From positions 167,195-231,194 of the forward strand of contig CAYMVI010000001.1 in the NCBI GenBank assembly GCA_964394075.1: 64,000 bases of DNA, given 5' to 3'. Both the position numbers and the translations under genes were made by a program. Numbering within the stretch: the first letter of the stretch is position 1; every line of letters begins with the position of its first letter. This stretch comes from an uncultured Eubacteriales bacterium. Lineage in GTDB: Bacteria > Bacillota > Clostridia > TANB77 > UBA1234. Positions 20,791 through 60,125 of the stretch are shown here, piece by piece. The notes beneath the pieces are model-generated. The model ran no database searches, was not told the origin of the DNA, and saw nothing but the letters and a program-made list of their open reading frames with translations.

Positions 20791-20888
20791 GTCCAAACGG
20801 GGACGTCCTCAATTGGACACCAAATAATGCTTAAAATTATTTATTACTTTAGGCAAGGTGTCCAATTGAGGACGTCCCCGTTTGGACA
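20790..20888. repeat. perfect 31-bp inverted repeat pair (GGTCCAAACGGGGACGTCCTCAATTGGACACC), a MITE/REP-like element abutting the engB stop
   Basis: The two arms are at 20790-20821 and 20858-20888 with a 36-nt AT-rich loop. The same unit recurs elsewhere in the window. Confidence 0.85.
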
Positions 20889-20890
20889 GT

Positions 20891-20925
20891 AAAACACGGT
20901 ATGCCAAAATGGTATGCCGTGTTTT
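20891..20925. terminator. bidirectional terminator
   Basis: Hairpin AAAACACGG..CCGTGTTTT flanked by A and T runs. Confidence 0.6.
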
Positions 20926-20936
20926 ACTATGTGTGT

Positions 20937-22376
20937 TTACTTCTTATCTTCGGATTCGCTGCCAGGCTTCTTTGCCCAGGGTTCTGCAGCTACGAGGATT
21001 TTTTTGATTTCATCGCCCATGAGGACTTCGTGCTCAAGCAGACCTTCGGCAAGTGCTTCGAGCGCAAGCGAATGTGTCTTGATGATTTCTTTTGTTTCGG
21101 CATAAACTCTCTTAAGATACTCGCGAGCAACAGTTTCAGTTCTCTTGAAAATATCTTCAGAGCAGAAGCCGTAATCATCATCGATGGCAATAGGACCGAT
21201 ATCAGAGTCCATGCCGAAATTCTGGAACATCATCAAAGCCAGAGCGGATGCGGAAGAAAGGTCAGCAGTTACACCAGAAGTGGTTTCGCCATATTTGAGT
21301 TCTTCAGCGGCCATACCACCAAAGGAATAAATAATTTGCTTGCGGCAGTCACTTTCGAACATAGAGAACTTCTCTTCACCAGCTTCTTCTTGGGTGAGAC
21401 CGAGGGATGCTGCACGAGGCGTGATTTCGACTCGACCAAGAATGTAGTCGGGATTAGAGTAGTATGCTGCGATAACATGACCAGCCTCATGATATGCGGT
21501 GGAACGACGTTCCTTTTCATTCATTTGGTTGTAGGTTTGACCTGCTTCCATTGCAAGCATAACGTCGTTGAAATCCTTGGAAGTAACGGCATCATGATGC
21601 TTACGTCTGGAGTAATGGATAGTTTCACGAACAATGAATTCGATGTCCTTGGGATACATACCAAGGGTGCATCTTGCCAGTCTCTCGGAAGAGACATCCG
21701 GCGCCAAATTTGCATCAAACATTTGGAAATACTCTTCGAACAGAGCCTTTCTGGTAGGCAAAGTCGGAGGCATGATTTGGATGACTTTGTTCTGATAGAA
21801 CGCATTGGGAGAGAAGTACGCCTTAGGAAGGGCAATCCTATCCTCGATGGTAGACAGAACGATGACGGTGTTTGTGGATTCTGTGATTTTCTGAGTCAGC
21901 TGGCTATGGAAAAGCATGAGCCGTTCAGCAGGGATTCCCTGCAGTGCGCTGAGATTCTGGATGTGCATTACGCAACCTTTTTTGAAGGAGCTTGCAACGA
22001 AGAAGAGTGCATTAAGCAGTTTCTCCGATTTCTTAAAGTAAGAAACGAAAGAAGTGGAGATGTCCACAGTGATAAGGGGACAATTAGCTTCTTTTGCAAG
22101 GCCTGCAACAAGGACCGTTTTGCCGGAACCAGAAGCACCAGCCATAAGGAAACGGGAATGGGGTGCGTGAACGGGGTCGTGCTGATACTGCTTGAGGTGT
22201 TTCAGGAACTCGAGCGCATCGCTCAATTCCTCTCTTTCGCTTTCCATGCCGATGATTTCAGAAGTTTTTTTGCCGATGTCCTGCGGAAGCGTAATGCGAA
22301 TGTAGTGCTTCTGCAGAAACGCGATTTTGGACTTGAGCTGCGCATCTTTCACAGATTTGACAAGACTTTGTTTCAT
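20937..22376 (-). CDS. soluble FtsH-like protein: degenerate AAA+ domain plus an intact M41 zinc-metalloprotease domain, compositionally foreign
   Basis: It carries a GASGSGKT Walker A. The Walker B position reads VMHIQN and the SRH arginines are lost. HEAGHVIA and the downstream FGGMAAEE are intact. There is no transmembrane segment. GC is about 50%. The RBS is a strong AAGGAGG. Confidence 0.7.
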   Translation of the reverse strand: MKQSLVKSVKDAQLKSKIAFLQKHYIRITLPQDIGKKTSEIIGMESEREELSDALEFLKHLKQYQHDPVHAPHSRFLMAGASGSGKTVLVAGLAKEANCPLITVDISTSFVSYFKKSEKLLNALFFVASSFKKGCVMHIQNLSALQGIPAERLMLFHSQLTQKITESTNTVIVLSTIEDRIALPKAYFSPNAFYQNKVIQIMPPTLPTRKALFEEYFQMFDANLAPDVSSERLARCTLGMYPKDIEFIVRETIHYSRRKHHDAVTSKDFNDVMLAMEAGQTYNQMNEKERRSTAYHEAGHVIAAYYSNPDYILGRVEITPRAASLGLTQEEAGEEKFSMFESDCRKQIIYSFGGMAAEELKYGETTSGVTADLSSASALALMMFQNFGMDSDIGPIAIDDDYGFCSEDIFKRTETVAREYLKRVYAETKEIIKTHSLALEALAEGLLEHEVLMGDEIKKILVAAEPWAKKPGSESEDKK

Positions 22377-22706
22377 AAACGGAATACCTCCTTTATGCTG
22401 GGATAAAATATGCTGCTAAGCGGTTTTTATTATATACAGGTTTGCTTTGAAAAGTCAATGGCAAAAACAGGCAATAAGCTTAGGGAAATAAGAGGTTTAC
22501 GGATTTTAGAAACAAAAACACTTAACATAATATAAAAAAGGGAAGAAAAATTTTCTTTCCTAGGGATATTGCAACCTTCAGGCTTTCTAGGGTTTGGGGG
22601 TTGTTTTTGCTGAAAAAGTAATGGTAAAATTAATATATAACAAGAAATTGTTATTATAATTATGTACACATTGATAAAATTTTTAAAGCAAAAGAGGTGA
22701 TTTTGT

Positions 22707-25708: not shown

Positions 25709-25829
25709 GAATGACCAAACGGGGACGCCCTCAGACCAAACGGGGACGCCCTCATTTGGACATCTTTTGATAAGGTGTCCAAATGAGGGCGTCCCCGTTT
25801 GGTCTGAGGGCGTCCCCGTTTGGTCATTC
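25709..25829. repeat. 121-bp perfect palindrome built from tandem then inverted copies of the GACCAAACGGGGACGCCCTCA unit
   Basis: It contains four unit copies (two direct, two inverted) between the convergent pyrG and rqcH genes. Its right end supplies the last codon and stop of rqcH. Confidence 0.9.
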
Positions 25830-37007: not shown

Positions 37008-37829
37008 ATGAAGAACACAATTGCTTCGTTCAGGTTGGTTGTTCGGCCTGATGCAAAGAGTCAACAAATAGCAGACGATATACGCAAATTAAACTCCAAG
37101 ATGTCCAATCCGCTTGTCGAATCTGATGACGGGGATTTGGTCATTGCTATCGGAGGCGACGGCACATTCATTCACGCGGTCACAGATACGGGATTTTCCA
37201 AAGAAAAAGTTTACACCGGAATTCATACCGGCACGTTGGGATTTATGCAGGATTTGTCCGCAAATGACATCTTAACGTTGATCCGGTACATCAAACATGA
37301 GGGCGAGTTGCAGACTCGCAAAGTTTATGTCTCTGACATTAAGATTACACTCAGAGATGGCACAGTCAAGCAGTATTATTCGCTCAATGAGATCCTTGTT
37401 GTAGGACGTAATTATTCCAGAATTTCCTTCAGTGAATATATCAACGGCGACCTGCTCCAGAAGATTTCTGGTAACGGCATAAACATAGCCGGCAGCGCCG
37501 GTGATACCGCATATTCTCTCAACGCAAAAGGTGCCATTGACTTTAGCCGAAACTTTCAGCTGATGTGTACCTTAGAAACGCCGATGATTTATGCAATTCA
37601 CGAGAGGTTTGTGGATAATCCGATTATCTGCTCGCAGATAAAGATTGTTTTGGAACCTTCCGAGAATATCCAAATTATCATCGATGGACGCGAAAAAGAG
37701 ATTGATTCTACGCTGATTGAAAGCGTTGAAGTTTCCATGGTTGATCCTGGCAAGTATATTAACAAATTGGACCTGACTAACTATTCTAAAGTTAGAGTTT
37801 TTCGTAGAAAGATTTTAGGCTACGAATGA
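37008..37829 (+). CDS. nadK: NAD+ kinase
   Basis: GGDGT and GSAGDTAYSLNAKG motifs. GC is about 46%, elevated. Confidence 0.75.
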   Translation: MKNTIASFRLVVRPDAKSQQIADDIRKLNSKMSNPLVESDDGDLVIAIGGDGTFIHAVTDTGFSKEKVYTGIHTGTLGFMQDLSANDILTLIRYIKHEGELQTRKVYVSDIKITLRDGTVKQYYSLNEILVVGRNYSRISFSEYINGDLLQKISGNGINIAGSAGDTAYSLNAKGAIDFSRNFQLMCTLETPMIYAIHERFVDNPIICSQIKIVLEPSENIQIIIDGREKEIDSTLIESVEVSMVDPGKYINKLDLTNYSKVRVFRRKILGYE

Positions 37830-51382: not shown

Positions 51383-51388
51383 AAAAAT

Positions 51389-51637
51389 AACCCTACGAGG
51401 TACGACACTATGAGTTTTATTTAGAACCAACACTAAATATTAGGGAGTTAGGTATCAAGGTATTGTGTGCATGCTCGACCGCGAGAAATCGCCGCTTGAG
51501 AAGCCCGTGTGATATCCTTGGAAGACACCCACCTGTCGGAGACAGGGCTCTTAAATGCGCTCATCATGACGGCTTATGTGGGGGCCAATTTTGAAATAAA
51601 AAAGAGTTTAGTTTTAACGAACTAAACTCTTTTTTTG
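51389..51637 (+). ncRNA. candidate stand-alone structured RNA (about 250 nt) of unassigned class
   Basis: The promoter-to-terminator interval has no ORF longer than 13 aa and a locally GC-rich core, and ends in a bidirectional terminator (AGAGTTTAGTT..AACTAAACTCT followed by T7). No same-strand gene lies downstream. Confidence 0.4.
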
Positions 51638-59865: not shown

Positions 59866-59959
59866 GAGGTAGAGTTATTATGTAAGCTTGATTAGATTTT
59901 CAAATAAGGTATAATATAGGTGGCTGACCAATAATATTTATAGGAGGGTAGAATTTACT

Positions 59960-60125
59960 TTTAGCGCATGGGCAAAGCTATTAAAAGGCTTTGTTGACGA
60001 GGTTGGAGTCTGTCGGAATAATCAGCGGATGGCTTCACGGCCTTGCTACGGTCGTTAAATACTGGTAAAAGCGTGTGGTGACATGCGTGTACAGATTCAG
60101 TAGAAGTAGATGTTAGCCTAATTAA
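59960..60125 (+). ncRNA. glmS ribozyme (GlcN6P-responsive self-cleaving riboswitch)
   Basis: The 5' AGCGC cleavage-site context and the core GCTTTGTTGACGAGGTTGGAG..TCGGAATAATCAGCGGATGG match the glmS consensus. It lies directly upstream of glmS. Confidence 0.8.

Follow-up and report, generated by a model that had tools for sequence, protein, structure and literature searches.

In a 64-kb stretch of DNA from an uncultured Eubacteriales bacterium (contig CAYMVI010000001.1; "the window" below means this whole stretch), an open reading frame (ORF) of 479 amino acids (aa) on the minus strand at 20937-22376 encodes a relative of the protease FtsH whose AAA module keeps the fold but, as far as its sequence tells, has lost all the kinds of residue by which ATP is hydrolysed, neighbouring subunits are activated and substrate is threaded. 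In the textbook picture, FtsH-type machines couple proteolysis to an unfoldase driven by ATP. The reading towards which we lean, on balance, is that of a cytosolic zinc protease independent of ATP hydrolysis, with the pseudo-AAA module as its scaffold. The protein belongs to a separate group of cytosolic FtsH paralogues that has no annotation as a family and occurs in a clade of low-GC (guanine plus cytosine), spore-forming gut and rumen Clostridia. A preliminary description of this DNA, which had located the same ORF, saw in it both a pseudo-ATPase with a live protease and a horizontal acquisition; the motif losses next to an intact M41 site bear out the former, and the latter, as a recent event, finds no support for reasons set out below.

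An FtsH-like protein with altered AAA motifs and an intact M41 site

The gene and the parts of its product lie as follows.

20937..22376, minus strand: coding sequence of the soluble FtsH-like protein, 479 aa, pseudo-AAA module and M41 protease (ORF listing, Pfam)
21537..22256, minus strand: AAA-like domain with lid, about aa 41-280; fold kept, hydrolysis and translocation residues lost (alignments)
22116..22139, minus strand: Walker A P-loop GASGSGKT, aa 80-87, intact (sequence)
21954..21959, minus strand: Walker B position, DE replaced by Q140-N141 (alignments)
21780..21854, minus strand: equivalent of sensor-1 and the second region of homology (SRH), …STIEDRIALPKAYFSPNAFYQNK…, with the sensor Asn and both Arg gone (alignment)
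20997..21524, minus strand: peptidase M41 domain, aa 285-460; no other part is as well conserved in the family (Pfam)
21477..21491, minus strand: zinc-binding catalytic HEAGH, aa 296-300 (sequence)
21261..21305, minus strand: Glu358 (in GGMAAE) to Asp372 (invariant columns; alignment to 2ce7)

Profile hidden Markov models and structure prediction agree on an FtsH cytosolic fold composed of M41 and a weakly matched AAA domain. Pfam recognises Peptidase_M41 (PF01434) at 1.3e-37, with 129.9 bits against a cutoff of 29.9 and over profile positions 3-191 of 191, and AAA at no better than 4.6e-9. With 177.8 bits against a cutoff of 600 for TIGR01241, the NCBIfam equivalog of FtsH, and 100.3 bits against 1008 for NF008004, the protein is set apart from the housekeeping membrane FtsH, as had been claimed before. 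Its nearest solved relatives are the cytosolic regions of FtsH from T. maritima, T. thermophilus and A. aeolicus together with YME1/AFG3L2 (E about 1e-40 to 1e-33, about 26-28% identity). An AlphaFold2 model built from the family alignment (predicted local distance difference test, pLDDT, 83) matches the cytosolic region of FtsH in 3kds with query and target template-modelling scores (TMq/TMt) of 0.71/0.79 in Foldseek and an E. coli FtsH model with a TMq of 0.83, the matches of this monomer being to FtsH protomers.

The same preliminary description had seen no transmembrane anchor, and we find none either: the highest Kyte-Doolittle score over 19 residues is 1.26, with its peak on the P-loop strand, FtsH_ext gives no Pfam match, and the protein starts about 40 residues before its AAA domain. 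In the alignment, the N-terminal transmembrane and periplasmic region of true FtsH is absent from every family member.

For the comparison of motifs the protein was aligned with 35 family members and 10 canonical FtsH proteins and, residue by residue, with T. maritima FtsH (2ce7). This confirmed an intact Walker A, the change of the Walker B DE to QN (VMHIQN stands opposite the canonical I(V/I)FIDE) and the absence of the SRH arginines, the stretch ATNRPD…RPGRFD of FtsH being replaced by STIEDR…SPNAFYQN. Where true FtsH reads ATNRPDxLDxALLRPGRFD, the sensor-1 Asn and the SRH arginines are missing in every member of the family. Two further losses had been missed earlier: the pore-1 loop, in which VSYFKKS stands opposite VEMFVGVG and whose motif is missing in all members, and the inter-subunit MDGF (DGF) motif, which the window protein lacks when aligned with 2ce7. 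The protease half, on the other hand, has retained what was first noticed in it, namely HEAGH and the downstream glutamate. H296, E297 and H300 are invariant in the family alignment, as are E358 and D372, the latter of which aligns with the Asp that is the third zinc ligand of solved FtsH, and the M41 segment STAYHEAGHVIAAYYSNPDYILGRVEITPRAxSLGLTQEE is nearly invariant.

The family itself emerged from a word-indexed search as about 35 clusters of 450-497 aa (one 353-aa fragment included) at E <= 1e-76, separated by a gap in E from canonical FtsH, which follows at about 1e-41 with 28-30% identity. When 1.84 billion representatives were searched exhaustively with a profile, some 12 further and more divergent soluble members of 448-487 aa came to light. 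All members lack the anchor, the arginine fingers and the pore loop and all keep HE[AISV]GH, while the Walker B position varies (QN, ND, NS, QE, EE, DE, DD, KD, RN, KN) and at least 90% of the sequences in the core family alignment (A1) have Lys86 of the P-loop. A scan of genome collections with the single protein as query yielded one metagenome-assembled genome of the same species (Clostridia bacterium RGIG6180, sheep rectum, 96% identity), and a scan of metagenomes returned mostly canonical FtsH. Source annotation has no other name for family members than 'AAA family ATPase [Clostridia bacterium]'; the soluble FtsH-like group corresponds to none of the families of NCBIfam and PADLOC, nor to any PHROG family with a functional annotation, and our literature search met no account of a soluble FtsH family with dead ATPase and live protease. 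The representative search also returned large relatives of unusual architecture (P0124, P0129, P0126, P0128; P0xxx being labels of individual proteins), some with three or four tandem AAA modules and, after these, one M41 domain, others with tandem AAA-M41 fusions and two M41 stretches, P0126 carrying an FtsH_ext domain in addition.

Inheritance next to engB and expression signals

Below, W stands for the gene of the window and L0xx for loci of related genomes. In orthologues of 70%, 52%, 50-51%, 43% and 36-38% identity, the FtsH-like gene lies beside engB each time, and this neighbourhood is common to L003, L006, L007, L011, L015, L009 and L022, all from low-GC genomes. On the long contigs L006, L007, L011 and L015, whose orthologues are 43-52% identical, tex and dtd follow engB, and the HAD gene comes with them where orthologues are 43-55% identical; GH18 lies nearby in L003, L006, L011 and L015, in L006 and L015 together with rqcH. 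Pairwise identity matrices of the FtsH-like protein, EngB, Tex, Dtd and YebC give one and the same grouping, ((W,L003),L015),(L006,L007),L011,L009. Because synteny with engB is conserved and these matrices are congruent, the gene has been inherited vertically next to engB, with no recent import. Both domains are under purifying selection: the ratio of nonsynonymous to synonymous divergence (dN/dS) is 0.035 against L013, 0.096 against L003 and 0.16 against L007, and taken by halves it is 0.03-0.11 for the AAA-like and 0.04-0.13 for the protease part. Neither an integrase nor a transposase was found near the gene, be it in the window or in the contexts of its relatives, nor a defence neighbourhood or partner defence gene, and none of about 15 contexts holds a linked gene for an AAA+ partner.

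Gene order and neighbours vary in some respects. In the deepest lineages (L009, 8001-10110; L022, 6001-8120) the FtsH-like gene is co-directional with and directly upstream of engB, at a gap of about 100-230 nucleotides (nt), and in all the others the two are convergent; the order in L009 and L022 recalls the lon-engB arrangement of Bacillus, which serves as a lead only. A conserved divergent upstream cluster is present in L006, L007, L011, L017 and L020 and absent from the window lineage, where GH18 is the divergent neighbour. The genes of this cluster in L006, L007 and L017 code for one ABC ATPase, a GntR regulator and a protein that measures about 660-680 aa and matches nothing in Pfam; a second ABC ATPase and CARDB-like and FtsX/MacB genes are also found in L007, L011 and L017.

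Signals around the gene are these.

22429..22458, minus strand: near-consensus sigma-A promoter TTGACT-18-TATAAT, 11/12 matches (sequence)
22385..22393, minus strand: Shine-Dalgarno AAAGGAGGT, 8 nt 5' of the ATG (sequence)
20888..20928, no strand assigned: hairpin terminator with a 19-bp stem, common to the convergent engB and FtsH-like genes
20791..20887, no strand assigned: GC-rich inverted repeat resembling repetitive extragenic palindromes (REP-like), 31-nt arms, 100% complementary; a dispersed family, not gene-specific

The gene is monocistronic. Its perfect ribosome-binding site, rightly pointed out before as strong, belongs to a near-invariant CATAAAGGAGGTATTCCnTTTATG element that recurs with minor variation only in 12 of the 12 orthologous upstream regions compared, and all 12 have a TTGACA/T-17/18-TATAAT promoter at the equivalent position (TAATAAT in L006). 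Since the promoter is of the consensus type, transcription is likely to be vegetative and probably constitutive. Terminator and repeat pair, pointed out before as the flank on one side, are both real, albeit the repeat is a clade-wide dispersed element and no insertion scar: further copies lie in the window at 25709-25829 (after pyrG) and 62628-63034, and L007 has a copy about 120 nt upstream of its FtsH-like gene. The palindrome, whose core reads GTCCAAAyGGGGACGTCCyCAnTTGGACA, folds into long hairpins where engB, pyrG and the gene ending at 62672 have their 3' ends. Rfam gave no match in the region of the FtsH-like gene; elsewhere in the window it found a glmS ribozyme upstream of glmS (59952-60113) and a 6S RNA gene (51387-51588), both ordinary.

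A GC-rich codon usage confined to the reading frame

A GC content of about 50% in a genome of about 30% had been reported for the gene, and the anomaly stands, though that figure is slightly too high: the ORF has 46.5% GC (53%, 37% and 50% at the first, second and third codon positions; GC3 more exactly 49.6%), the highest value of all and 5.9 standard deviations above the other 1440-nt windows of the 64 kb (mean 31.6%, standard deviation 2.5). Its codon usage hardly overlaps with that of host genes. CTC and CTG make up 51% of its Leu codons versus about 1%, CAG 61% of Gln versus 4%, CCC 41% versus 1% and TCC 38% versus 2%, while TTA, ATA, CCA, TCA and CTA are never used; in host genes TTA accounts for 56% of Leu, CCA for 50% of Pro and ATA for 38% of Ile codons. 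The gene is not alone in this, as five of the 49 window ORFs of at least 180 aa have a GC3 of 0.46-0.52 and all others stay at or below 0.28 (0.13-0.28). Apart from the FtsH-like gene, the ORFs with such an ORF-confined GC3 of 0.46-0.52 are the following.

173-763, 822-1466 and 1640-2578: three adjacent genes, two without Pfam match and one metallophosphoesterase-like
37008-37829: NAD kinase

The NAD kinase has a syntenic orthologue in L099, where NrdD is 91% and FeoB 85% identical, and its GC3 is 0.49 in the window and 0.29 in L099, with most L099 neighbours at 0.14-0.21.

Orthologues of the FtsH-like gene share the trait to different degrees. In L003, L006, L007 and L009 its GC is 42-47% and its GC3 0.41-0.52, against flanks of 30-32% GC; across five lineages a GC3 of 0.41-0.52 contrasts with 0.14-0.26 in neighbouring genes. 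L016, L022 and L023 show the anomaly to an intermediate degree, and in L015, L017, L019, L020 and L011 it is weak or missing. At seven loci the rise stops at the ends of the ORF, with 25-41% GC in the 150 nt upstream and 38-54% in the first 300 nt of the ORF. W and L006/L007 have one idiosyncratic codon profile in common, in which GCA and GAA are retained and GGA, CCA, TCA, ATA and TTA nearly eliminated. At residues conserved between W and L007, however, codon identity (0.466) is that expected from permutation (0.438, p = 0.17), and the same applies to W and L009 (0.384 versus 0.395, p = 0.68), which means that any position-specific ancestral signal between deep lineages is gone. Close relatives have held their GC3 (W 0.50, L013 0.48, L018 0.48) although the synonymous divergence (dS) between them is 0.55-1.0. 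As orthologues share their composition although synonymous sites are saturated, this composition cannot be read as the signature of a donor, and it points to a gene-specific force that maintains GC-rich codon usage, most likely selection on codon choice.

Several other causes were considered and set aside. Unfinished amelioration does not agree with random codon identity between deep lineages and with the GC3 held by close relatives. Translational optimisation of a highly expressed gene fails on the fact that groEL, rpoB/C and efp of this clade use AT-rich codons (GC3 0.14-0.19) and prefer TTA, AGA and CAA, and the FtsH-like gene thus relies on codons that are not the preferred ones. Given a rise that ends at the ORF and is codon-specific, neither uniform GC pressure nor biased gene conversion nor island-type transfer is likely. 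The literature that we searched held nothing on maintained GC-rich genes in AT-rich Firmicutes. To our minds, the most likely idea is that this codon usage decouples translation of the gene from that of the bulk of AT-codon genes. It can be extended, doubtful as the extension is, to a regulon defined by codon usage, in which selection would maintain the GC-rich codons of the FtsH-like gene, of the gene for NAD kinase and of a few more that are inherited vertically. Translation of such a regulon would draw on tRNA isoacceptors in low demand, uncoupled from bulk translation, and might be robust in amino-acid starvation or tRNA-targeting stress, or else deliberately throttled, and the product of the FtsH-like gene would be an ATP-independent cytosolic protease for energy-poor or nutrient-poor conditions.

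Proposed function, rival readings and known systems

In FtsH structures the protease domains form a stable six-fold ring and the AAA ring supplies unfolding. By analogy, the window protein would assemble through its protease domains into a soluble FtsH-like ring and, as a zinc endopeptidase independent of ATP hydrolysis, could cut cytosolic peptides or unstructured or pre-unfolded polypeptides. Its pseudo-AAA tier would then be a cap without motor function that gates, docks substrates or helps the protein to oligomerise, or else a nucleotide-sensing element; nucleotide may still be bound there in most members, in a structural or allosteric role.

A number of points weigh against this picture or the selection proposed for its codons. 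Ring assembly and ATP-independent proteolysis are what we infer from FtsH structures and the pattern of motifs. A few family members (P0021, P0023-25, P0027-29) have DE or EE at the Walker B position, and part of the family may possibly have residual ATPase activity. The P-loop is destroyed in P0027, P0028, P0034 and P0121, from which it follows that nucleotide binding is not universal in the family. There is no canonical FtsH among the genes of the 64-kb window. As to composition, the codon bias is largely lost in L011, L015 and L017 and hence dispensable, a decay which also implies that AT-biased mutation does act on the locus. Polarised synonymous changes are near balance (31 AT>GC versus 43 GC>AT), a result that is supportive only and no more than moderately strong, as it comes from parsimony with a distant, saturated outgroup and a distorted host-gene control.

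Could the AAA module nonetheless work as a non-canonical ATPase and the protein be a genuine ATP-dependent soluble protease? The P-loop lysine kept in at least 90% of the family and the DE or EE of some members would fit, but the Walker B pair, sensor-1, the SRH arginines, pore-1 and DGF are jointly missing from the window protein and most members, and several have lost the P-loop too, which makes this improbable. Somewhat less so, though still doubtful, is a scenario where the protein docks onto or co-assembles with the canonical membrane FtsH or another AAA+ unfoldase that serves as motor, and acts as an extra protease subunit, adaptor or regulator. FtsH-type rings that mix active with inactive subunits are known, chloroplast FtsH/FtsHi-Ycf2 complexes are among the structural matches, and a catalytically dead AAA-like tier under purifying selection fits an interaction surface. 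Yet the transmembrane segments that hold FtsH rings at the membrane are absent, as are arginine fingers to stimulate a neighbouring active subunit, and the roughly 15 contexts lack a linked AAA+ partner gene.

Less credible than either is a recent import of foreign cargo, be it a toxin or an anti-phage effector, whose GC would be that of a donor genome, and we consider this reading already largely refuted. It is the composition that speaks for it (46.5% GC versus 31.6%, z = 5.9; a codon usage nearly disjoint from that of host genes), together with a codon profile (GCA, CAG, ATC, CTC/CTG, CGT/AGA) which is probably like that of mid-GC Clostridia. PADLOC also returned IetA at 39.7 bits, a weak match limited to the P-loop region (residues 37-143), its other matches being generic AAA ones, and the one strong match among PHROGs (phrog_30773, 134.6 bits) is to an FtsH-length family of unknown function. 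The role as toxin or phage defence that had been suggested for the protein is not supported, as the defence-library matches are generic to P-loops and a defence context is missing. Recent horizontal acquisition as such is contradicted by conserved synteny, an identity pattern congruent across seven lineages, purifying selection and the conserved, host-like promoter and untranslated region outside a GC island that ends at the ORF. Moreover, the bias persists with synonymous sites saturated between lineages, integrase, transposase and partner defence genes are not found nearby, and the flanking repeat is a dispersed REP-like element. A further way to account for the composition starts from an ORF on the opposite strand.

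20901..22406, plus strand: 501-codon antisense ORF in exact codon register, co-directional with all neighbours; an artefact, not a gene

Open over its full length and oriented like its neighbours, it is one that a gene caller could mis-annotate. We give practically no credence to the idea that it is the true gene or that a sense-antisense pair constrains the composition. What keeps the frame open is the complete lack of TTA, CTA and TCA codons in the sense gene, and all orthologues, L013, L018, L003, L006 and L007 among them, have it broken, with 2 stops in L013 (96% identical), 12 in L018 (85%), 4 in L003 and 4-19 further out. Nor has the sense gene diverged less at synonymous sites, its dS being 0.55 where neighbours have 0.35-1.1, and homology and fold of the sense protein are unambiguous. 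An overlapping antisense gene was accordingly rejected as the cause of the composition.

Should the ATP-independent protease with its pseudo-AAA scaffold be borne out, bacteria would have a cytosolic family opposite to the chloroplast FtsHi proteins (see below), in which a motor-dead AAA tier is under selection on a live M41 protease. It raises the question of what an AAA fold that can neither hydrolyse ATP nor translocate is good for, and it may offer a natural system for the study of FtsH proteolysis apart from unfolding. Quite separately, the gene shows that a low-GC genome can keep up a sharp island of GC and codon usage and pass it on vertically; several genes of the window have this property, and composition-based calls of horizontal transfer can thus be wrong. 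The pattern hints at selection of codons that runs counter to the usage of highly expressed genes.

Among known systems, FtsH itself (MEROPS M41; 2ce7/3kds) shares with the window protein the two-domain cytosolic architecture and fold including the AAA lid, the zinc site of HEXXH plus Asp and 26-30% of sequence. It differs in that the window protein has no N-terminal transmembrane helices or periplasmic domain and has lost Walker B, sensor-1, arginine fingers, pore-1 loop and DGF, and in that the window family forms a sequence cluster of its own (177.8 bits versus the equivalog cutoff of 600). The IetA/IteA anti-phage ATPases (NF042959) are alike only weakly and in the P-loop half of AAA (39.7 bits in PADLOC, 32.6 in NCBIfam, where the cutoff is 510); the window protein carries an M41 domain of its own, and its locus has neither the IetS-type partner protease of IetAS nor a defence-island context. 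A third system are the FtsHi pseudo-proteases of chloroplasts (Ycf2-FtsHi motor; 8xku, 8xqw), which are found among both the sequence and the structure matches of the window protein and which, too, are FtsH paralogues with one activity lost and the fold kept. FtsHi proteins have kept the ATPase and lost the HEXXH zinc site (PMC4070914, PMC6460958). Membrane-bound and eukaryotic (plastid) as they are, they differ from the window protein in setting and represent its mirror image, since it keeps the protease and, by its motifs, has lost the ATPase.

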